A DNA stretch of 64,000 nucleotides from Cenarchaeum sp. GTDB taxonomy: Archaea > Thermoproteota > Nitrososphaeria > Nitrososphaerales > Nitrosopumilaceae. The DNA is taken from positions 992,001-1,056,000 of the forward strand of contig OZ242221.1 of the NCBI GenBank assembly GCA_965206845.1, read 5' to 3'. A program made the translations under genes and the position numbers. Numbering within the stretch: position 1 is the first letter of the stretch; every line of letters starts with the position of its first letter. A model generated the notes under the pieces. The model did no database searches. It worked only from the letters and a program-made list of their open reading frames with translations, and was not told the DNA's origin. This document shows, in pieces, positions 345 to 63,518 of this stretch.

Positions 345-384
345 CACTGTTCCCACAGCGATTCCACTAATATTTGAAGCTAAA

Positions 385-565
385 GGGAATTATATACAAA
401 AGTACACAGTACCTTTGCCTTTTGCTGGCGCTCTTGCAATCCCCCCCACGCTTGGCTCTCGCGTGTTGTCTGGGGAACGCCCGGGAGCAATCCCGCGCTG
501 GTGTCTCGCGTCTTTGGACGACCTTCCCGGCCGCCCTGCCGCCTTGGCTGTTGCCTTGGAGGCAA
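385..565 (-). ncRNA. Putative omegaRNA scaffold overlapping the tnpB 3' end (E1)
   Basis: Nucleotide sequence conserved across the three copies, with shared hairpins. Position at the element end downstream of RuvC-III is as expected for TnpB omegaRNAs. Boundaries approximate. Confidence 0.6.
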
Positions 566-2042
566 TGTTATACGCGGCATTGATGTCCGCGTTGACGTCA
601 TTCTCACATCTGTCATTGGTGCACCGGAACTCACCCCGCGACACCCTGGATTCCTTGTCGGTGCGGCCGCACCTGTGGCATGTGATGCTGGTGCCCTTGG
701 GGTCCACCATTACCACGATCACGCCGGCATTGGCGCACGCGCCCTTGATCAATCGTTGGAACGTCCCGGGCCTTGAGTAGGCCATCTCCCTGTTTAGCCC
801 CGTCTTGGCGGAGCTTCCCTTGCCCTTGGACTTGGCTGTCATGTTGTTGAGGCTGAGGTCCTCCATGGCCACCGTTCCCGCGCCGTCCGCTATCCTCTTG
901 GACGCGTGCCTTTCCCAGTTGGTCTGGCGGTTGGCAATCTTTTCCCTCTTTTTCCGGATCTTCCTGTGCAGCTCCTTGTAGCTTCTTGACTTGGTCTTCC
1001 TCGGCTTGTCCCTGTTGCGGCCGCTCGTGTTGTTCCCGCCGTTAGTGGTTTTGCTTCCACTGTCAGCATCTTCCTTACTGTCCTGTTTGGTGCGCCTGTT
1101 GCCGCGCCCCCCTCGCTTCCTTGAGATCTCGGAATACATCTTGGATATGTCGTCGTTCTTCGCCCTCCTGCAGTCCTTTGGGAGGTCGTGGAACCTGTGG
1201 CGGCCGGTATCGAGGTCCGCCGTGGCGGCGCCGTGCACTATGCCCATGTCCACGCCCCTGACGACCGTGGATTCGGACGGCTCCGGGGCCTTGGTTTCAA
1301 CCTGGATGTGGAGCCTGTACGTCCTGTGGCGGTCTTTGGTGCGTTTCGTGGTCTTCTTCGTCGTCTCGACGAGCTGGAAGGAGAGCATGTCAAGATCCTC
1401 CACATCGCCGTGCACCCTTACGGTGCCTATGCCGGGGAGCATCACCGTGTTGTCGCCCTTGTAGACGGGCTTCTCGAAGACCGAGAGGGACCGCTGCTCC
1501 CCCTTCCTCTTGAACAGGGAATCCCTGTGGCGCCACTTGTTCCTCTTGTTGCTCCACTTGTTCGACGGCAAATTTACAGCAGTGTCAATATCCGGTATCC
1601 CCTCCTTTTCCCGGTCGAGCCTAGCCAGGTACTTCCATAATGACTTGTTGCGGCGCTTTTTGCCGTTTGATATTACGAACTTTTGAACGGCATCCAGGCC
1701 CAGCAGGAGCCCCGCCCTCTGCGCAAGGAAGCCGCCCTCTATCCATTCCTTCCCATGTCTCCATCCGGTGAGCATCTTGTTGAGGTCAAACTTGGTTGTC
1801 CTCGGGTCGTCCAGCTTCTCCCGCACCGCCATGTTGAACGCCCACCGCTGCTGGTCCATTCGGCAGGATATGAGATCCGACAGCTCCGCCGACTGGTCAA
1901 AGTCCACCTTTATGTTGCGTATCATGATGCCCTCCATTGGGCGCCTTGACCACTTTTTTGGAGCCGGCTCGGTTGCGGCTGCGGTTGCGTCCGCCTGCTC
2001 CGTTGCTGTTGCTGCTACTACCTCTGCCATGACGGATTTCAT
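390..2042 (-). CDS. tnpB: TnpB/Cas12f-like RNA-guided endonuclease, 550 aa
   Basis: RuvC-I RGVDMG, RuvC-II AMEDL, Zn ribbon TSITCHRCG...CTNDRC, RuvC-III NADINAAYNI. Stop TAA lies inside the TIR. Confidence 0.9.
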   Translation of the reverse strand: MKSVMAEVVAATATEQADATAAATEPAPKKWSRRPMEGIMIRNIKVDFDQSAELSDLISCRMDQQRWAFNMAVREKLDDPRTTKFDLNKMLTGWRHGKEWIEGGFLAQRAGLLLGLDAVQKFVISNGKKRRNKSLWKYLARLDREKEGIPDIDTAVNLPSNKWSNKRNKWRHRDSLFKRKGEQRSLSVFEKPVYKGDNTVMLPGIGTVRVHGDVEDLDMLSFQLVETTKKTTKRTKDRHRTYRLHIQVETKAPEPSESTVVRGVDMGIVHGAATADLDTGRHRFHDLPKDCRRAKNDDISKMYSEISRKRGGRGNRRTKQDSKEDADSGSKTTNGGNNTSGRNRDKPRKTKSRSYKELHRKIRKKREKIANRQTNWERHASKRIADGAGTVAMEDLSLNNMTAKSKGKGSSAKTGLNREMAYSRPGTFQRLIKGACANAGVIVVMVDPKGTSITCHRCGRTDKESRVSRGEFRCTNDRCENDVNADINAAYNIASKATAKAAGRPGRSSKDARHQRGIAPGRSPDNTREPSVGGIARAPAKGKGTVYFCI

Positions 2043-3639: not shown

Positions 3640-3779
3640 AAGATGTGATTCGTAATTAGCACGCAGGCACATTAGAGCACGATCTTTGGCATAATCATAC
3701 GAAAGTTGCATGCTTTGGAGCACACATCTGTAAGATTATGGGCATCGAAGGCCCGATTCTTAATTGCGGATCATGTCTC
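3640..3779. mobile_element. 140-bp MITE-like repeat, family A, copy 1
   Basis: Near-identical to 16274-16413 and (inverted) 17301-17440; imperfect TIR (G/A)AGATGTGATTCGTAATTA / TAATTGCGGATCATGTCTC. Confidence 0.85.
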
Positions 3780-4381
3780 GGGACGCAGTCGTCCTGCAGC
3801 GCAAGTTCCGGCACAAGTTTGTCAACCCCGAGGGCATGCACGTCTTCTCGGTGATACAGAGCTTCAACAGGACATGCCGCAAGCTGGGACTCGTCCCCTG
3901 GATGTGCGTGGAAAAGATTGCGGAGAACCCGAACTACAACATATTCGAGGCCGGACCTGAGATGGCACGCGCGCCGGCGCCTCCGGCGGATGCGCCCGAG
4001 TCAGACACATTCTACGCGGAACAGGCCCTCGTCGCGCACCCGGCGGTCGGTGAAAGTGTAGCCGAGACGGAACGGCCCCCGGTCGGGGCACCCGCCGCAC
4101 CGCCGGATCAGTCACCTGCTACGTCCCACACGCCGGCCGGAGACAGGGCCGATACGGAAGCAGACCCGCACGGGTTCGTGCCCCCGCTGGCGGCAGGCCT
4201 GCGGCCGGGCAGCCGCGCCGCAATGACCCGCGTCCCATCTCTGCCTCGCGCCATAACCGATCCCGATCATGTGCCGTTTTACGGCAAGCCGCCGCCGGCA
4301 GTATCTGCCTGACGCTGCAAGATGACACCTGGTTGGCACGGCTAGCCGGAGGGGGACAAGTGCTTGGACCTGAGGATGTAC
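3780..4381 (+). pseudogene. IS66-like transposase C-terminal remnant with Pro/Ala-rich tail and probable element end
   Basis: RDAVVLQRKFRHKFVNPEGMHVFSVIQSFNRTCRKLGLVPW resembles the IS66 TnpC C-terminus (stop at 4312). 5' part is cut at MITE-A. End motif GGACCTGAGGATGTAC at 4366-4381. Confidence 0.65.
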
Positions 4382-16017: not shown

Positions 16018-16273
16018 GGGAATTATATACTTCGGTAGGCATAACCGGGGAATTACATACAAAAGTAACCAAAATTCCTGCCTTTTTGGCGCTCCCTTTC
16101 GCGCGCCGTCCTTGTTAGATGCCGGCGCGTCATCCGTGGCGGCCGTAATCGCACGGACAAGCATAACGGGATGGATGGCCATGACAGTGCGGACTGTCCG
16201 CATGGTCTGCATGGTATTGTCGCGGCGCTTTTATGCGATGTGAAATATTGCATGTGGTAATGAAATCAATCAT
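16018..16273 (+). mobile_element. Truncated left arm of the TnpB-TIR element family (two stacked TIRs, promoter, first 5 codons)
   Basis: GGGAATTATATACTTCGGT (E2 type) at 16018, GGGAATTACATACAAAAGTA (E1 type) at 16048, conserved promoter cassette, ATGAAATCAATCATG (MKSIM) at 16260 cut at MITE-A. Confidence 0.85.
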
Positions 16274-16413
16274 GAGATGTGATTCGTAATTAGCACGCAG
16301 GCATATTAGAGCACGATCTTTGGCATAATCATACGAAAGTTGCATGCTTTGGAGCACACATCTGTAAGATTATGGGCATCGAAGGCCCGATTCTTAATTG
16401 CGGATCATGTCTC
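16274..16413. mobile_element. 140-bp MITE family A, copy 2
   Basis: Near-identical to 3640-3779. Confidence 0.85.
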
Positions 16414-52982: not shown

Positions 52983-53298
52983 GGTAGTAGCCCCGCCGGC
53001 TCCGATCTGGACTGACGGCCCCATCTCCCGGCGTACAAGATCCGCCACGTTGACGGGGAAGCGTGGATGCTCCACCTTAGGGCTGCTCCCTCCCGGACCT
53101 CGCCCCTTTCGATGGTTCAGATTTAGAAGTTGTCCCTTCAGACAATCCCAATCCTGCAACCACCCGCCCCGGCGTGATTTCATCTCCGCACGCCAAGCGG
53201 GAACTGCCATTCCAGAGATTTACCCGACAGTTGCTGATCTCTGCATATAGCCGGTTTCAGAACGGGGCACGGCTGGCACCCCAATCCTCCCTACTACC
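52983..53298 (-). ncRNA. ffs: Archaeal signal recognition particle (7S) RNA
   Basis: Helix-8 motif GAGGTCCGGGAGGGAGCAGC on the minus strand; complementary termini GGTAGTAG/CTACTACC; ~316 nt. Confidence 0.88.
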
Positions 53299-57605: not shown

Positions 57606-59551
57606 GGGAATTATATACTTCGGTTACAGAACCGTTGCCTTTTTCTGGTGCTCTGTCGATCCCTCCCACTCGTGGCTCTTGCGTGATGTCTGTGGAGCGG
57701 ACTGGGCAGCCCTGTCATGGAATCCCGCGCCAGGCAGGCGACAAGGATGGCTATGACGGTATGGACAGTCTGCATGGTCTGCATACTAATGACAGTGTTG
57801 CCGCGGCGCTTTTATGCGGTGTGGCATATTGCATGCGGTAATGAAATCAATCGATATGGTGGCAACGGCGCTGGTAACGGTACCGGCGCCAGAAGCGAAA
57901 GCGAAACCGGCAAGGGAGGACACGGTGATCCGCACAATAAAGGTGGACTTTGGCCAGTCCGTGGCGCTGTCAGAGCTCATATCGCGCCTCATTGTGCAGC
58001 AGCGGTGGGCATACAACGTGGCCGTAGAGGAGATGCTGAATGACCCGACAGTAAGCAAATTTGATCTCAACAACAAGCTCACCGCGTGGAGGCAGAAGCA
58101 CGACTGGCTTGACGGCAACGTCTCTGTGCAACGGGCCGGGCTTGCCCAGGGAAGGGATGCCGTGCTGAAGTTTCTGGAATCAAACACTACAAAGCGCGCC
58201 CGCAGGATCATGTGGAAAGACAAATCCAAGAAATATAGAGAAAATAAAACGGAAAAAAATGACAAGAGGCTCAGGGAAGACGGAGATGGCGCCGGCGCAA
58301 ACCTGTCCCTGACCCCATGGAGTGGCAGAAAGAACAGGTGGAGCCACGAAAGCGACCTGTACAGGGCAAGGGGCGACAGGCAGGCGCTGTGTGTGTTTGG
58401 AAAGCCCGTGCAAAAGGACAACAACAGGATCATGCTACCGGGCATCGGCACAGTAGGCGTGCACGGCGAGATGATGGAATGGGACATGCGATCCTTCCAG
58501 CTTGTGGAGACAACCAAAAGGATCACCAGGCGCACCAGGGACCGCGACCGGACATACCGCCTCCACGTCAATGTCCGCATCAGAAAGCCCCGACCGGTGG
58601 AGTGTGATATAGTCCGTGGTGTCGACATGGGGATTGTCCACAACGCGACAACTGTGGACCTTGACACAGGCTACACGGAGTTCCACGACATGCCCAAGGA
58701 CTGCAGGAGGTCAAAGAACGATGAGGTATCGCGGATGCAGGCGGAGCTCTCAAGGAAGCGTGGAGGCAGCGGCAACCGGCGCATCAGGCAGAATGGTAAA
58801 GGCGACTGTCCCGGCAATGCCAGCATCAACGGCGGCACCAATGGGGACGGGAACGGCAGTAACAGCAAGCCGGGCAAATCGGGCAAGCAATGCAAGACCG
58901 TCGGGCCGAACCGCATCAACAGAAAGGCCAAGCGCGACAGGCCAAGGAAGCCCAAATCACGAAGTTACAAGGATCTGCAAAGGAAGATACAAAAAAAGCG
59001 GGAAAAGGTCGCCAACCGCCAGACGAACTGGGAGCGCCACGCGTCAAAGAAGATAGCCGACGGCGCCGGCACGGTGGCCATCGAGGATCTGAATATCAAA
59101 AACATGACGGCCAGGGCCAAAGGCAGTGGAAGCTCCGCCAAGAACGGCCTCAACCGCGAGATGGCATACTCCAGGCCGGGGACGTTCCAAAGGCGGATCG
59201 AGGGCGCATGCGCGAACGCCGGCGTGAAGGTAATCTCCGTTTATCCGGGGGGCACGAGCACCACATGCTACATGTGCGGCCGCAGGGACAAAGGCTCCCG
59301 CGTGTCGCAGGCCGAGTTCATATGCACGAATCACAAATGCGAATGCCACATCAACGCGGACGTCAATGCCGCGTATAACATTGCCGCCAGGGCGGCGGCA
59401 GGGCGGCGGGGAACGTCGTCCAAAGGCGCGAGATTCCAGGCCGGGATTGCTCCCGGACGCTCCGCAAACAACACGCAAGAGCCACGCGTGGGAGGGATCG
59501 CCGGAGCGCCAGAAAAAGGCAACGGTTCTGTAACCGAAGTATATAATTCCC
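57606..59551 (+). mobile_element. TIR-bounded, TnpB-carrying non-autonomous transposon (copy E2)
   Basis: TIR perfect for 43 bp (GGGAATTATATACTTCGGTTACAGAACCGTTGCCTTTTTCTGG), extending imperfectly to ~95-100 bp; flanks TAAAAAAA / TAAATAGG (no exact TSD). Confidence 0.9.
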
Positions 59552-59715
59552 TAAATAGGCTTCAAAACAATAGATCAGCAAGGTGTCCATGGGAGAAGAC
59601 TATCCGGAGTATGGTGAGGAGATCGGGTCCGCAGAGGTGCCAGAGGCAGACCCCTACAATTCCGACGTATTTGCAGAACCGGGACAGGCTCGGCACGATC
59701 CGGATATGGATCTGA
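57841..59715 (+). CDS. tnpB: TnpB/Cas12f-like RNA-guided endonuclease, 624 aa (reads through the element end)
   Basis: RGVDMG, AIEDL, TSTTCYMCG...CTNHKC, NADVNAAYNI; start MKSID homologous to E1/E3. Confidence 0.88.
   Translation: MKSIDMVATALVTVPAPEAKAKPAREDTVIRTIKVDFGQSVALSELISRLIVQQRWAYNVAVEEMLNDPTVSKFDLNNKLTAWRQKHDWLDGNVSVQRAGLAQGRDAVLKFLESNTTKRARRIMWKDKSKKYRENKTEKNDKRLREDGDGAGANLSLTPWSGRKNRWSHESDLYRARGDRQALCVFGKPVQKDNNRIMLPGIGTVGVHGEMMEWDMRSFQLVETTKRITRRTRDRDRTYRLHVNVRIRKPRPVECDIVRGVDMGIVHNATTVDLDTGYTEFHDMPKDCRRSKNDEVSRMQAELSRKRGGSGNRRIRQNGKGDCPGNASINGGTNGDGNGSNSKPGKSGKQCKTVGPNRINRKAKRDRPRKPKSRSYKDLQRKIQKKREKVANRQTNWERHASKKIADGAGTVAIEDLNIKNMTARAKGSGSSAKNGLNREMAYSRPGTFQRRIEGACANAGVKVISVYPGGTSTTCYMCGRRDKGSRVSQAEFICTNHKCECHINADVNAAYNIAARAAAGRRGTSSKGARFQAGIAPGRSANNTQEPRVGGIAGAPEKGNGSVTEVYNSLNRLQNNRSARCPWEKTIRSMVRRSGPQRCQRQTPTIPTYLQNRDRLGTIRIWI
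59381..59551 (+). ncRNA. Putative omegaRNA scaffold (E2)
   Basis: Hairpins at 59402-59420 and 59441-59456 show compensatory changes relative to E1/E3. Confidence 0.6.
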
Positions 59716-60014
59716 TCGAGCAGCTGAACCCCGTAGAGACCAAGGAGGGTGAAAAGATCGGCAAGAGCCAGTGCAAAAAAATCTGCTATGGGTTCAGGGC
59801 CATCAAGCCGCCCCGGCGTGGGCGCTACTCGTCGGGCCAGGTAAGGTGCATGATCTGTGACATCTTCATAAGCCGGGAGGGGTGCGCCGACAAGAGCGGG
59901 AACACCGCAACCCCGGAGGCCATGGGGCTGTTCTGCAAGTGCTGCGGGTACAGGGTGCGTACCAAGCCCAGGGCAAGCATATACAAGCAAAAGTTCAACA
60001 GGGATATCCAATAG
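59589..60014 (+). CDS. Cys-rich Zn-binding hypothetical protein
   Basis: CKKIC, CMIC, CKCCG.RVRTKPR. Confidence 0.75.
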   Translation: MGEDYPEYGEEIGSAEVPEADPYNSDVFAEPGQARHDPDMDLIEQLNPVETKEGEKIGKSQCKKICYGFRAIKPPRRGRYSSGQVRCMICDIFISREGCADKSGNTATPEAMGLFCKCCGYRVRTKPRASIYKQKFNRDIQ

Positions 60015-60083
60015 GGGGATACCCATTGCGGCAAAAAACCGCCGAACAAAAAACTTAACTTGAGACGGATCGTACCCTCTGAC

Positions 60084-60530
60084 GTGAAGCTGACCAGCCA
60101 GACGTTTCAAGACGGATCCGAGATTCCCAGGAGGTGCGGCTACAAGACAAAAAACGTCAGCCCCGCCCTGCATGTCAGCGACATCCCGCCGGGCACGAGA
60201 TCGCTTGCGCTGGTGATGGATGATCCTGACGCCATGAAGCCTGCAGGCAAGGTCTGGGTGCACTGGCTCGTGTGGGGCATAGGCCCGGCAGCCGCCGGGG
60301 TTGCCGAAGGCTCCGCCTTTGACGGCGCCGTGGAGGGGAAGACCGACTTTGGCAGTACGGGATACGGCGGACCGGCCCCACCGGACGGGAGGCACACATA
60401 CGTCTTCAAAATCTATGCGCTGGACGCCAGGCTGAGCCTTGCTGGCGGGGCCAGAAAGCCGGAGCTTGAGGGCGCCATCAAGGGACATGTCATCGGGCAG
60501 GCGGTCCTGAAGGGAACCTTTGCCCCCTGA
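60084..60530 (+). CDS. YbhB/YbcL (PEBP) family protein
   Basis: NVSP.L, DDPDA, WVHW, YGGPAPP, H.Y.F..YALD. Confidence 0.92.
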   Translation: MKLTSQTFQDGSEIPRRCGYKTKNVSPALHVSDIPPGTRSLALVMDDPDAMKPAGKVWVHWLVWGIGPAAAGVAEGSAFDGAVEGKTDFGSTGYGGPAPPDGRHTYVFKIYALDARLSLAGGARKPELEGAIKGHVIGQAVLKGTFAP

Positions 60531-60712
60531 CTGCGATCCGCCGGGCTCTCGCTGCGCGCCCCCCGCACACGGCAGCCCCATGCCAAAAAACTCAATTAGG
60601 AACGTGGCGGGGTTAGGGCGCGGGCATTGATGAGCATATCCCTCTGATTGGTGATGTGGATCTTGAGTTCTGAGCCTGCTGATTTTTATGGCAGACCGCG
60701 CATGCGGCAGGT

Positions 60713-61132
60713 GTGAAATCGCTGACACGGTACCTCAGATACGAGACAAAGACCCGCAGGGAGTTCGTCAACATAACGCCGGAGGTCGAGGCACTGGTCA
60801 GGGAGAGCGGGATCCGGGAGGGGCTCTGCCTGGTCAACGCGATGCACATCACTGCCAGCGTCTTCATCAACGATGACGAGGGCGGGCTCCACCGCGATTA
60901 TGAGCAGTGGCTTGAGGGGCTCGCCCCGCACGAGCCCACAGACGCGTACCTGCACAACCGGACCGGCGAGGACAACGCGGACGCCCACCTGAAGCGGCAG
61001 GTCATGGGCAGGGAGGTCGTCGTGGCGGTTACGGGCGGCGCGCTGGACTTCGGCCCGTGGGAGCAGATCTTCTACGGTGAGTTTGACGGAAGGAGATCCA
61101 AGCGCGTGCTGGTGAAGATAATCGGCGAGTGA
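60713..61132 (+). CDS. yjbQ: YjbQ/UPF0047 family protein
   Basis: [28 protein letters not shown]. Confidence 0.92.
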
Positions 61133-61133
61133 C

Positions 61134-61298
61134 CTATCCAAAGTCCACGTCGCGCTTCTGGCTCTGCCCCTCGTTCTTCCTGGCTGCCGCGCGAAACTTG
61201 TCGCTGTGGTTTTGTGGCCCGTGGCCGCACTTTACGCAGGCAATGAGGTACCCGTTGGTGTTCTTCTGGTATGTCTCGCAACCGCAAAAGCAGGCCAT
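61134..61298 (-). CDS. Small Cys-rich hypothetical protein (54 aa)
   Basis: Below the ORF-track cutoff; MACFCGC...CVKCGHGPQNH; ATATAT box ~25 nt upstream. Confidence 0.6.
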   Translation of the reverse strand: MACFCGCETYQKNTNGYLIACVKCGHGPQNHSDKFRAAARKNEGQSQKRDVDFG

Positions 61299-61338
61299 GT
61301 GATCTGCTGGAGTGCCGGTTGATATATCTCTTGAGAAA

Positions 61339-61519
61339 GGGAATTATATACATGAGTGTACAGTACCCATGCCTTTTGCTGGCGCTCTTGCATTGCCTCC
61401 CACGCTTGGCTCTCGCGTGTTGTTTGCGGAACGCGCGGGAGCAATCCCGCGCTGGCTTCTCGCGCCTTCAGACGACGATCCCCGCCGCCCTGCCGCCAAG
61501 GCTTTCGCCTTGGAAGCAA
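61339..61519 (-). ncRNA. Putative omegaRNA scaffold (E3)
   Basis: CCAAGGC-GAAA-GCCTTGG and GCGCGGGA-TTGC-TCCCGCGC hairpins; conserved with E1/E2. Confidence 0.6.
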
Positions 61520-63113
61520 TGTTATGCGCCGCGTTTATGTCGGCGTTGACGTCATTGTAACAGTTGTCATTGGTGCAGCGGAACCTGCCCTGCGATGTGC
61601 GGGATTCCTTGTCCTTGCGCCCACAAGCGCTGCATGTTATGCTGGTGCCCTTGGGGTCCACCATAATTACAGTCACTCCGGCGTTCGCGCACGCCTGCCC
61701 GATCTGCTTTTGGAACGTTCCGGGCCGGGAATAGGCCATCTCCCTGTTTAGCCCCGTCTTGGCGGATCTTCCCTTGCCTTTGACCTTGGCGGTCATGTTG
61801 TTTAGGTTGAGATCCTCCATGGCCACGGTTCTGGCGCCATCGGCTATCTTCTTTGACGCGTGCCTTTCCCAGTTGGTCTGGCGGTTGGCTATCTTCTCGC
61901 GCTTCTTGCGGATCTTCCTTTGGAGTTCCTTATAGCTGCGGGACTTTGGCTTCCTTGTCTTGTTTTTGTTGTGGCCTCTGGTGTTGTTGGTGTTGCTGCT
62001 GCTGCCGCTTCTCGTGTTGTTGGTGCTGCTGCTGCCGCCGCTGCCGTTGGTGCCGTTCCCGAAGTCCGCGTCCTTGCTCCCGCCACCAGAGTCTTCATTG
62101 GTGTCCTGCCTGATCCTGCGGTTGCCCCTCCCGCCGCGCTTCTGAGAGAGCTCGGAGTACATCCTGGACAGGTCGTCGTCCTTGGAGCGCCTGCAGTCCT
62201 TTGGGAGGTCGTGAAATTTATGATGGCCGGTGCCGAGGTCTGCCGTGGCGGCGCCGTGGACTATGCCCATGTCCACGCCCCTTACGACCGCGGATTCAGA
62301 CGGCTCCGGGGCCTTGGTTTCGACCTGGATGTGGAGGCGGTACGTCCTGTTATGGTTCTCCGTGCGCTTCGTGGCCCTCTTCGTCGTCTCCACCAATTGG
62401 AATGATCGCATGTCCAATTTCTCCACGTCGCCGCGCACTCTCACGGTGCCGATTCCCGGTAGCATCACCATGTTGTCGCCTTTGTATACTGGCTTCTCAA
62501 ACACCGAGAGTGACCGCTGCTCCCCTTTCCTCTTGAACAGGTCATTGGTGTGGCTCCATTCGTTCCTCTTGTTGCTCCACTTGTTTGACGGCAGGTTTGA
62601 CGCGGTGTAGATGTCGATGTCCGGTATCCCCTCCTTTTCCCGGTCCCGTCTGGCCAGGTGTTTCCACAGGGACTTGTTGCTGCGCTTTTTCCCGTTGGAT
62701 GCCATGAACTTCTTTACGGCGTCCATGCCCAGCAGGAGGCCGGCCCTCTGCACCATGCAGCTGCAGGCCTCATTGCGTCCGGCGGCCCGCGCCTCCTTGT
62801 CATGGACGAGCCACGCCTTTGAGTTTCTCCATTTCGTTAGCATGTTGTTGAGGTCAAACTTGGTTGTCCTCGGGTCTTTCAGCTTCCCGCGCACGGCCAT
62901 GTTGAAGGCCCACCTCTGCTGGTCCATGTGGCGGGATATGAGATCCGACAGCTCCGCCGACTGGTCAAAGTCCACCTTTATGTTGCGGACCATTATGCCT
63001 TCCATTGAGCGTTTTGACCACTTTTTTGGAGCCGGCTCGGTCGCGGCAGCGGTTGCATCTGCTACCGCCGGCTCCGTTGCTGTTATTGCCGTTGCCGTCA
63101 TGATGGGTTTCAT
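61344..63113 (-). CDS. tnpB: TnpB/Cas12f-like RNA-guided endonuclease, 589 aa
   Basis: RGVDMG, AMEDL, TSITCSACG...CTNDNC, NADINAAHNI; stop inside the TIR. Confidence 0.9.
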   Translation of the reverse strand: MKPIMTATAITATEPAVADATAAATEPAPKKWSKRSMEGIMVRNIKVDFDQSAELSDLISRHMDQQRWAFNMAVRGKLKDPRTTKFDLNNMLTKWRNSKAWLVHDKEARAAGRNEACSCMVQRAGLLLGMDAVKKFMASNGKKRSNKSLWKHLARRDREKEGIPDIDIYTASNLPSNKWSNKRNEWSHTNDLFKRKGEQRSLSVFEKPVYKGDNMVMLPGIGTVRVRGDVEKLDMRSFQLVETTKRATKRTENHNRTYRLHIQVETKAPEPSESAVVRGVDMGIVHGAATADLGTGHHKFHDLPKDCRRSKDDDLSRMYSELSQKRGGRGNRRIRQDTNEDSGGGSKDADFGNGTNGSGGSSSTNNTRSGSSSNTNNTRGHNKNKTRKPKSRSYKELQRKIRKKREKIANRQTNWERHASKKIADGARTVAMEDLNLNNMTAKVKGKGRSAKTGLNREMAYSRPGTFQKQIGQACANAGVTVIMVDPKGTSITCSACGRKDKESRTSQGRFRCTNDNCYNDVNADINAAHNIASKAKALAAGRRGSSSEGARSQRGIAPARSANNTREPSVGGNARAPAKGMGTVHSCI

Positions 63114-63518
63114 TACCGCATGCAAATGCCAAATATGTATAAAAACACCGTGGCAATACCATGCAGACCATGCGGACCGTCCGTGCCGTCACGGCCATCA
63201 GGGAGTGGCAGGTTGCAGGCGCCCAGATGGGAGTGGATACTGTGTGGAGAGACCCGAACAAAAACCCTATCCGAGGGCAGCGTATGGCCATGTTTGCCGT
63301 ATATGATTCCCCGCGCCAGGGACGGAAAAACATGAACGGGACAACCCTGCCGGCCATACTAGAGGGGCATTCCGATCTCTTTGACAACAGAAACAGGACA
63401 TATCGCTTGGATCAACAGGCACTGCGGTTTGCATGCAGACGTTCACTCAACTATATAATCCCCTTGAGAAACGGCCCGCCCGCCACAAGTTCATATCCTG
63501 CGTCGGCGTACCCGATCC

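Follow-up and report, generated by a model that had tools for sequence, protein, structure and literature searches.

Covarying RNA structure at the 3′ end of tnpB in an inverted-repeat transposon of Cenarchaeum, a probable omegaRNA scaffold

In a 64,000-nt stretch of the genome of the archaeon Cenarchaeum sp. (hereafter the window; contig OZ242221.1, positions 992,001 to 1,056,000; the genome around it comprises 1.65 Mb in a single contig), three elements carrying a tnpB gene, E1, E2, and E3, end in a conserved structured RNA that very probably represents the scaffold of a TnpB guide RNA (omegaRNA). This reading follows from the strong covariation of the paired bases, from G.U pairs on the tnpB sense strand, and from the position of the structure at the 3′ end of the TnpB gene; metatranscriptome contigs support it weakly. 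All direct evidence is comparative. That a guide RNA overlaps the 3′ end of tnpB is textbook knowledge for IS200/IS605 and IS607 elements, which excise without scars and whose TnpB guide RNAs are well studied. The original prediction, which drew on E1 to E3, had assigned three roles to the stretch beginning at position 385, namely protein tail, guide-RNA scaffold, and transposase-binding end, and the sequence comparisons described below support all three.

Conserved fold of the right ends

The three copies and the sequences quoted for them were found where they had been placed, and positions 385, 59551, and 61339 turned out to be true element ends. The elements and their structured RNAs are as follows, with bit scores referring to a covariance model, R1, that was built from the genomic copies of the right end:

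385-2254, E1 element, tnpB on the minus strand, right end starting at 385
57606-59551, E2 element, tnpB on the plus strand, right end starting at 59551
61339-63463, E3 element, tnpB on the minus strand, right end starting at 61339
385-593, minus strand, E1 structured RNA and candidate omegaRNA scaffold, 209 nt, starting in the RuvC-III codons and reaching the final base of E1; R1 match at 992385-992593 of this genome (G000), 225 bits
59353-59551, plus strand, E2 structured RNA (candidate scaffold), R1 match 227 bits
61339-61547, minus strand, E3 structured RNA (candidate scaffold), R1 match 228.8 bits

A 231-nt query from the right end matched 23 places in the whole genome, 17 of them near-complete right ends with 74-100% identity, compared to the three copies available before. 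In their alignment, conservation extends through GTATATAATTCCC and ceases right after CCC, the sequence being random directly beyond. Aligning all genomic copies had been proposed as a check of the original prediction, and the 17 copies confirmed the covariation and extended it beyond E1 to E3.

In order to obtain a consensus fold, RNAalifold was applied to 260 nt from each of the 17 right ends, all from one genome. It returned 47 pairs in 8 helices. Over 793 cells (pairs times copies), 97.7% are paired, and changes on both sides occur in 15 pairs and 56 cells, that is, 15 pairs show compensatory changes. None of 500 shuffles matched the observed value on four of five measures; on the fifth, further pair types, 40 of 500 did. 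Slid controls, in which the 3′ partners were moved by 1-3 columns, were only 35-50% paired and gave 2-5 compensatory pairs. The E1 sequence alone folds at -82.7 kcal/mol (z = -3.29), and none of 200 shuffles folds as well. The structured unit measures 197-209 nt, begins with its first helix in the RuvC-III codons, and spans to the last base of the element in all 17 copies. Its 5′ limit lies at helix 1, as the 200 nt farther upstream contain no covarying helices. The original prediction was therefore right in placing the structure in the tnpB tail and the terminal inverted repeat (TIR), but its 181 nt were too short for a fold of about 200-209 nt that starts in the RuvC-III codons. In E1 coordinates, all on the minus strand, the helices are:

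573-591, helix 1, inside the codons of N-A-D-x-N-A-A (RuvC-III)
537-564, helix 2, hairpin of variable length closed by UGCC/GGCA
516-536, helix 3, GGGCGGCN-GGGAW-NGUCGUCC, with two invariant G.U pairs; kept in the related genomes G018 and G088
508-512 with 427-431, helix 4, long-range stem enclosing helices 5-7 (427-512)
481-496, helix 5, inside helix 4
474-477 with 443-446, helix 6, inside helix 4
447-465, helix 7, inside helix 4
396-418, helix 8, terminal hairpin adjoining the inverted repeat

Nearly all pairings first noticed in E1 to E3 reappear in this fold. The swap between GGCGGCC-GGGAA-GGTCGTC in E1 and GGCGGCG-GGGAW-CGTCGTC in E2 and E3 is real and corresponds to the loop-closing pair of helix 3, which is GC in 7, CG in 6, and AU in 4 of the 17 copies. 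The second compensatory swap, in NNGGGA-TTGC-TCCCNN, is the outer pair of helix 5 (GC:10, CG:5, AU:1), with a single mismatch in E1, as had been claimed. The CACGC/GCGTG stem present in all three copies is helix 7; variants in other copies (CAUGC/GCAUG, GGCGC/GCGCC, GGCAC/GUGCC) make four of its five pairs covary. The variable hairpin likewise exists as helix 2, with compensatory changes in two of the four pairs of its UGCC/GGCA closing stem and an insert whose length varies by 9-12 nt among copies. Helices 4-7 are 96.5-100% paired, with changes on both sides in two pairs of helix 5, one of helix 6, and four of helix 7. In helix 8, four of nine pairs are compensatory (GGGUAC/GUACUC, CGGUU/AACCG, AAAGUA/UACUUU, GGGUG/CACUC). 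One pair of helix 1 is GC in 11 and CG in 6 copies, via paired synonymous Ala codon changes (GCG..GCC versus GCC..GCG).

The two long-range pairings that had been proposed fared differently. GGCGC/GCGCC is helix 4, 96.5% paired and free of double changes within the genome, but with two pairs changed on both sides in another genus (GACGG/CCGUC in G018). TTGCC/GGCAA did not stand: it is 91.5% complementary with 7 unpaired cells, shows no compensatory change, and is no better than shuffles (500 of 500), and its bases are better explained by helices 2 and 8, because those helices covary. The last helix stops about 12 nt short of the element end, leaving a single-stranded tail of about 12 nt within the 13-nt terminal repeat, whose first base belongs to the last pair of helix 8. 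By eye, the helix 3 loop GGGAW might form a pseudoknot with the terminal UUCCC; both sides are nearly invariant, so that covariation is uninformative here.

The fold is not confined to this genome. When run on 61 related genomes, R1, the model made from the 17 copies, matched two, this one and G018, a member of another genus of the same family that gave 9 matches (E 8e-12 to 8e-7). Twelve diverged copies, nine from G018 and three from here, are 82.4% paired with 21 compensatory pairs compared to 3-10 in slid controls, in an alignment that was fitted to R1 and hence favors the structure of the model. Helices 1, 3, 4, and 8 are kept in these copies, and helices 5-7 are replaced by another middle domain. 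A third genome, G088, of the genus of G018, holds compact elements of 1.43-1.57 kb. Their TnpB measures 453 aa, and they share with the elements described here the 13-nt ends, the 8-bp duplications, and the stop codon inside the repeat. Folding the G088 and G018 right ends together recovered helices 1 and 3 and the long-range helix 4, in which two pairs differ on both sides between the two genomes (AU:9/GC:6 and GC:7/CG:6).

Level of constraint and role of the structure

The proteins encoded by the elements belong, by their sequences, to the TnpB family and have intact catalytic and zinc-finger residues. They score 122 (E1) and 131 bits against NF040570 (guided_TnpB; cut-off 100) and 52-57 bits against PF07282 (cut-off 26.3), and match solved Cas12f/TnpB structures in the PDB with E down to 9e-10. 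Invariant in the TnpB alignment are D220, E349, and D441 of the RuvC domain and C410, C413, C429, and C434 of the zinc finger. The E1 gene is located as follows:

390-2042, minus strand, E1 tnpB open frame (NF040570, PF07282); the core begins near IKVDF, and the true start probably lies later than that of the open frame

The TnpB proteins are 550-593 aa long, including an N-terminal extension and, between RuvC-I and RuvC-II, a low-complexity insert that is hypervariable and enriched in G, N, S, and T (about 1000-1130 in E1, 58790-58900 in E2, and 61960-62100 in E3). The length of this insert varies by copy, and its codon positions 1 and 2 are as variable as position 3.

We compared codon positions in order to see at which level the 3′ part of the gene is constrained. 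In the 118 codons upstream of RuvC-III, pairwise differences at codon positions 1/2/3 amount to 877/750/2270, compared to 513/569/591 in the last 62 codons (11 of 17 copies being in frame). In sliding windows over 10 copies, the ratio of third to first and second positions is 2.4-7 in the gene body compared to 0.4-1.3 in the last 55 codons or so. Judged by these counts, the gene body is under purifying selection across copies, and the loss of the third-position excess in the last ~55 codons indicates that constraint there acts on nucleotides, not on amino acids. The frame nonetheless runs through the whole structure. In 10 of the 17 copies it is closed only within the terminal repeat, by a TAA that ends 5 nt short of the element end; E1 and E3 are among them, which bears out the earlier statement that their stop codon lies inside the TIR. 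One further frame stops 9 nt earlier, and six run past the end after small indels, including that of E2, where a 2-nt deletion in the loop of helix 8 shifts the frame and lets the open reading frame (ORF) continue beyond the element. The C-terminal tail of TnpB thus looks, from sequence, like a translated passenger of the RNA: the proposed protein-tail role holds in that the frame is open, but amino-acid-level constraint was not seen in the tail.

The strand of the fold can be read from its wobble pairs. Its 793 cells comprise 690 Watson-Crick, 85 G.U, and 9 A.C combinations, which places the fold on the tnpB sense strand, where 97.7% of cells pair compared to 88.1% on the antisense strand. 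As the fold was predicted on the sense strand, these numbers are biased toward it to some extent, yet two G.U pairs are invariant in all 17 copies.

Covariation proves that a fold is selected, not what the fold does. It is therefore conceivable that the structure is a folded 3′ end of the tnpB mRNA that serves, for example, stability, termination, or the control of translation, and no guide extension was seen in the metatranscriptome contigs. We regard this explanation as improbable. The fold is kept where tnpB is truncated or lost (copies c755088 and c1178387, and G018 elements of about 1.2 kb), so that there is no mRNA to serve; conservation ends exactly at the element end; and place, size (about 200 nt), and architecture match those known for TnpB guide RNAs (main text of PMC10691335). 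Still less credit is due to a role of the hairpins as DNA, either as sub-terminal transposase sites or as single-strand hairpins like those of IS200/IS605 ends, with no function in RNA. The 3′ part does lie in or next to the terminal inverted repeat, and inverted helices 4-8 occur at the left end of two elements and in one remnant resembling a miniature inverted-repeat transposable element (MITE). Yet most left ends have just 13-25 nt in common with the right end, so that some 200 nt are not needed as a transposase site, and helix 1 lies about 190 nt inside the element, in coding sequence. Furthermore, pairing is strand-specific (85 G.U versus 9 A.C), and R1 gave no match at E up to 1 on TnpB-less loci of the transposase family IS1595, except on loci with TnpB remnants. 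That the covariation is a by-product of coding constraint or shared ancestry is hardly credible, even though all 17 copies are related members of one genome and shuffle tests overstate significance for kin, because the tail has no third-position excess, amino acids differ as a result of the compensatory changes (R/P/Q at helix 3), slid controls preserve the relatedness yet give 2-5 compensatory pairs compared to 15, and the helices recur with other base pairs in a second and a third lineage.

RNA data were available as assembled contigs from four sponge metatranscriptome runs of one study (X2-X5), covering parts of 59100-61800. In X2, five short contigs lie over 61370-61492 of the E3 scaffold at a word depth of 180-940, compared to 31-32 for two neighboring genes, while the tnpB body has no cover. 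Three X4 contigs over 61363-61513 reach a depth of 70-249, with neighbors at 10.7-55 and a depth of 2-3 on two small pieces at 61635-61686. The E2 scaffold has mostly no depth in any run, except for one X4 contig (contig 17; 13.1 and 10.8 in the bins of 59282-59463) and contig 9 of X3 (2.7); the former joins 59386 to 61495 on opposite strands. Contig 9 of X3 and contig 14 of X4 cross a right end into flank, at low depth and as contigs without end information. Overall, these data give a weak hint that RNA from the scaffold greatly exceeds RNA from the remainder of tnpB.

Several points speak against a guide-RNA scaffold. Runs X3 and X5 have no contig on 61284-61800, though the neighbors of E3 are covered; with contigs only, such absence is uninformative. 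Contig depth is rough and may sum k-mers common to copies of the family, and contigs show neither strand nor ends. The relatedness of 17 copies from one genome inflates the comparison with shuffles, which the slid controls and the second genus offset only in part. Finally, a comparison with known omegaRNA models, which the original prediction had named as a check, provided no tie to a curated covariance model. Rfam 15 gave no omegaRNA match on the window at the gathering score, and with the threshold relaxed to E of 10, positions 340-660 yielded only two matches, both to unrelated families and at chance level; Rfam may hold no model for this lineage.

The carrier transposon and a candidate target-adjacent motif

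The scaffold resides in a transposon with TIRs. Throughout the genome, 15 complete elements of 1829-2644 bp are bounded by inverted GGGAATTATATAC, the 13-nt TIR, and tnpB is the only gene they bring along, one copy being interrupted by an unrelated insertion sequence (IS). Target site duplications (TSDs) of 8 bp are perfect in 10 of the 15, agree at 7 of 8 positions in two, at 6 of 8 in one, and at 5 of 8 in one, and are unrecognizable in one; among the compact G088 elements, five of six have perfect ones. The left ends fall into three types, and in most of them the sequence common to both ends is limited to about 13-25 nt. For E3, an X2 contig leads from 60734 to 61338 and then directly into sequence from 63472 on. 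It represents the empty site with a single copy of the duplication and confirms the borders of E3 to the base. The end features of the window elements are:

385-397, no strand assigned, right terminal inverted repeat of E1, GTATATAATTCCC in tnpB sense, located by a genome motif scan; holds the tnpB stop TAA at 390-392
2242-2263, no strand assigned, left end of E1, with terminal repeat 2242-2254, left target duplication 2255-2262, and candidate target-adjacent motif (TAM) base 2263 (G on the tnpB sense strand)
365-384, minus strand, predicted E1 guide region, consisting of the 8-bp target duplication 377-384 and the next 12 nt of flank, as expected from TnpB biology
61331-63472, minus strand, whole E3 element with flanks; 8-bp duplications TTGAGAAA at 61331-61338 and 63464-63471, candidate TAM base 63472
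57606-57823, minus strand, left end of E2, an outward-facing copy of scaffold helices 4-8; 95-nt inverted repeat, 93% complementary; R1 84.9 bits

The outward-facing copy of helices 4-8 was observed at the left end of two elements, E2 and the one at 1189705-1189924 of this genome (R1 84.9 and 132.5 bits), and at one of these two left ends the base pairs differ from those of the element's own right end. A MITE-like remnant of 369 bp (1178387-1178755) consists of two facing scaffolds. It is conceivable that the mirrored helices give rise to a second, outward-reading guide RNA for the opposite flank.

None of the 15 elements has a transposase gene of its own. We found their ends, however, next to transposase genes of the IS1595 family (PF12762, DDE_Tnp_IS1595): GGGAATTATATAC or GGGGATTATATA[CG] lies 50-63 nt upstream of PF12762-type genes at five loci (L074, L076, L082, L084, and L087). 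In all, five loci have the terminal 13-mer or a variant of it differing by 1-2 bases at this distance, namely one in G062, one in G016, two in G018, and a pseudogene copy in this genome, which is located 63 nt from an exact GGGAATTATATAC; a further locus, L073, has a variant end identical at 17 of 24 positions. Homologues of the transposase gene are present in 9 of the family's 81 genomes, counting this one, and are concentrated in the RNA-bearing genus (3 of 3 genomes). The ends shared with IS1595 transposase genes suggest that the TnpB elements are best read as a non-autonomous IS1595-type TIR family that is moved in trans. Their ends (GGGAATTAT...) and 8-bp duplications also match those of the IS1595 family; for the ISNwi1-type subgroup in ISfinder, these are an end consensus of ggnnatTAT and an 8-bp duplication. 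The predicted transposase-binding role is thereby supported by sequence, as the terminal 13 nt are a true inverted repeat with 8-bp duplications that recurs upstream of IS1595-family genes. Nevertheless, the sole intact PF12762 gene of this genome (119.6 bits) has a diverged upstream end (GGGGCTTATATCGCTGAGTACAC), of which 17 of 24 positions equal the TnpB-element end, and the copy with the exact end is a pseudogene. The elements may therefore be immobile here, which counts against ongoing mobilization in trans. L088 and L091 of G088 are complete TnpB-less IS1595-type elements, with about 235 nt of G+C-rich non-coding sequence between transposase stop and right end, on which R1 gave no match.

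Other assignments were considered and rejected. An IS66-family partner had been suggested by a PF03050 ORF in a 4.2-kb copy with 74% TnpB identity on the public contig L067, the only relative recovered from a search of genome contigs, but comparison with other copies identified this ORF as part of a nested IS, which has separate repeats (GTAACAGTTCGG...) and a separate 8-bp duplication (TTCGGTAG). Among the other IS families of this genome, the GGGAATTATATAC ends are absent from four DDE_Tnp_1 families, an IS110 family, and an rve family; one of these non-partner families interrupts the element copy c872716. Membership in IS200/IS605 or IS607 is ruled out by the 13-nt TIR at both ends, the 8-bp TSD, and the empty site, since those elements have neither terminal inverted repeats nor target site duplications (main text of PMC13565253).

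The flanks contain a conserved base that is a candidate for the TAM or a part of it. Immediately 5′ of the left duplication (position -9), G is found in 15 of 15 elements here, in the single L067 element, and in 4 of 5 scorable G088 elements (20 of 21 in total; the exception, L137, has A, and L133 and L140 are not scorable). In all scored TnpB elements the duplication itself starts with T or C (Y) and is otherwise variable. The mirror C on the right side occurs in only 5 of 15. A G without its mirror C makes the signal polar with respect to tnpB, which is not expected from a symmetric transposase complex. In both elements with long TIRs, a C directly follows the right duplication, mirroring the left-side G. 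Nine TnpB-less IS1595-type controls have G in 3 and Y as the next base in 4 cases (Fisher test against 16 of 16, p = 0.0005 for G and 0.002 for Y); these controls come from other genomes and subfamilies, and an 8-bp duplication was assumed for them. On the empty E3 allele (X2 contig 3), position 63472 is T for C, i.e., A for G on the tnpB sense strand. No other base differs within 30 nt past the junction, and over its 605 aligned positions the contig departs from the window at 8. This single case fits an empty allele that is immune to cleavage. Apart from the limits of the controls, two arguments count against a TAM: the conserved G could be a target preference of the transposase, and characterized TnpBs have TAMs of 4-5 nt, so that one base would be much shorter.

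Further traces of the family and other features of the genome were noted. At 16018-16280 of the window (1008018-1008271 of G000), two left-end fragments of different types (GGGAATTATATACTTCGG..., then GGGAATTACATACAAAAG...) lie 30 nt apart, with about 100 nt from the interior of an element behind them; together they represent what is left of a decayed or nested element. Inside E3, a second left-end-like motif of type b, GGGAATCATATAC, at 63311 (1055311 of G000), 152 nt inward of the outer left end, suggests a past nested or tandem insertion. A MITE-like repeat of about 140-145 bp at 3641-3784 (995641-995784 of G000) recurs at about 35 other places in the genome with 92-99% identity, and one copy is nested in the IS66-like element of L067. 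The latter contig is labeled as a Dehalococcoidia metagenome-assembled genome (57.7% G+C), has stretches nearly identical to parts of this archaeal genome, among them a solo left end that recurs at position 976525 of G000, and is probably a mis-binned archaeal contig. One scan of metagenome contigs with the TnpB alignment yielded 321 pattern matches, none of which was confirmed. The genome is rich in insertion sequences for its 1.65 Mb (four DDE_Tnp_1 families with 5-14 copies each, IS110, rve, and IS66-like fragments) and contains six TFIIB paralogues; a match to archaeal signal recognition particle RNA lies at 52985-53296 of the window.

Proposed mechanism and comparison with known systems

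Taken together, these results allow us to propose how the system might work. The same DNA would encode the scaffold and the unconstrained tail of TnpB, with the terminal 13-25 bp serving as transposon end. By analogy to other TnpB systems, the RNA would be made in the direction of tnpB, from the mRNA or from an internal start, and be reduced to the scaffold of about 200 nt; transcription running out of the right end would extend it by a guide of some 16-20 nt taken from the flank. As insertion duplicates the target, this guide must then start with the 8-bp duplication. The empty site, composed of left flank, one copy of the duplication, and right flank, would hold a full match to the guide, with the TAM at the end of the left flank. 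RNA-loaded TnpB may recognize and cut this site and thereby help the element to be restored or retained. At the occupied right junction, the TAM position is a C, and the element would for this reason be spared from self-cutting. The carrier would be a non-autonomous TIR transposon on which an IS1595-family DDE transposase acts in trans.

A more specific proposal is that an OMEGA system (from obligate mobile element-guided activity) became fitted to a TSD-making, IS1595-type DDE transposon. The end of the scaffold would consist of the transposase-binding repeat bases, guides would begin with the 8-bp duplication, the TAM would have shrunk to a G (perhaps G followed by Y) outside the duplication, and left-end helices 4-8 of some copies could give a second guide. 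We put this forward tentatively and with considerable doubt. If the one-base TAM is true, only insertions of that polarity would be kept by TnpB, and empty alleles would escape by a single mutation of the TAM. The family might reveal in what way a homing nuclease is useful to a cut-and-paste transposon whose insertion duplicates the target, and about 20 diverged copies, intact nucleases, a covarying RNA, and a known empty site make it a concrete, testable case. Moreover, the RNA provides a new covariance model for annotating such elements, and as a compact nuclease for genome editing, a TnpB that needs only a very short TAM would have practical appeal.

The omegaRNA of IS200/IS605 elements (also reRNA; an example is ISDra2) resembles the structure described here. 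It is a sense RNA of about 150-250 nt that covers the 3′ end of tnpB up to the right end and takes its guide from the flank (main texts of PMC13565253 and PMC10691335); in our elements, the guide is predicted. The carriers differ, as IS200/IS605 elements have hairpin ends and make no duplications, in contrast to the TIRs and 8-bp duplications found here, with which a guide would start. No similarity was detected in Rfam 15, and the candidate TAM is a single G compared to 4-5 nt. Relative to the IS1595 family itself, the window elements lack a transposase and consist of tnpB and the RNA only.

TnpB in elements with inverted terminal repeats has been described before. In the DDE-1 to DDE-6 branches (Altae-Tran et al. 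2023), the 3′ end of TnpB lies at most 250 bp from the transposon end, and solo TnpB copies with the ends of transposase-bearing elements imply mobilization in trans (main text of PMC10691335). The elements studied here are alike in that TnpB is located within an inverted-repeat element whose ends are those of transposase elements. As DDE partners, the main text of PMC10691335 names IS630 only, and that of PMC13565253 names ISL2, IS630, and IS1031. IS1595 was not found in either main text as far as searched, though the branch may be listed in the supplements of PMC10691335; IS66 had no match in the main text of that paper. A literature search for TnpB together with Cenarchaeum returned nothing, and for TnpB with IS66 or IS1595 only incidental co-mentions. 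IS1595 is thus probably a new transposase partner. The same two main texts contain no RNA structure, TAM, or logic of duplication within the guide for DDE-type elements. The pairing of OMEGA with DDE transposases in prokaryotes is called rare in the main text of PMC13565253, which asks for the reason. Our results add a resolved structure, exact borders, a guide logic that starts with the duplication, and a testable one-base TAM candidate.

The nearest functional parallel is provided by the Fanzors, relatives of TnpB in eukaryotic DDE transposons with TIRs and TSDs, in which the duplication is likewise part of target recognition (main text of PMC13565253). According to the same source, the 5′ duplication forms part of the Fanzor TAM, whereas the conserved base described here lies outside the duplication; host and protein differ as well, being an archaeon and a prokaryotic TnpB. 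Overall, we describe a new RNA family, very probably of omegaRNAs, in a rare architecture that had already been reported.

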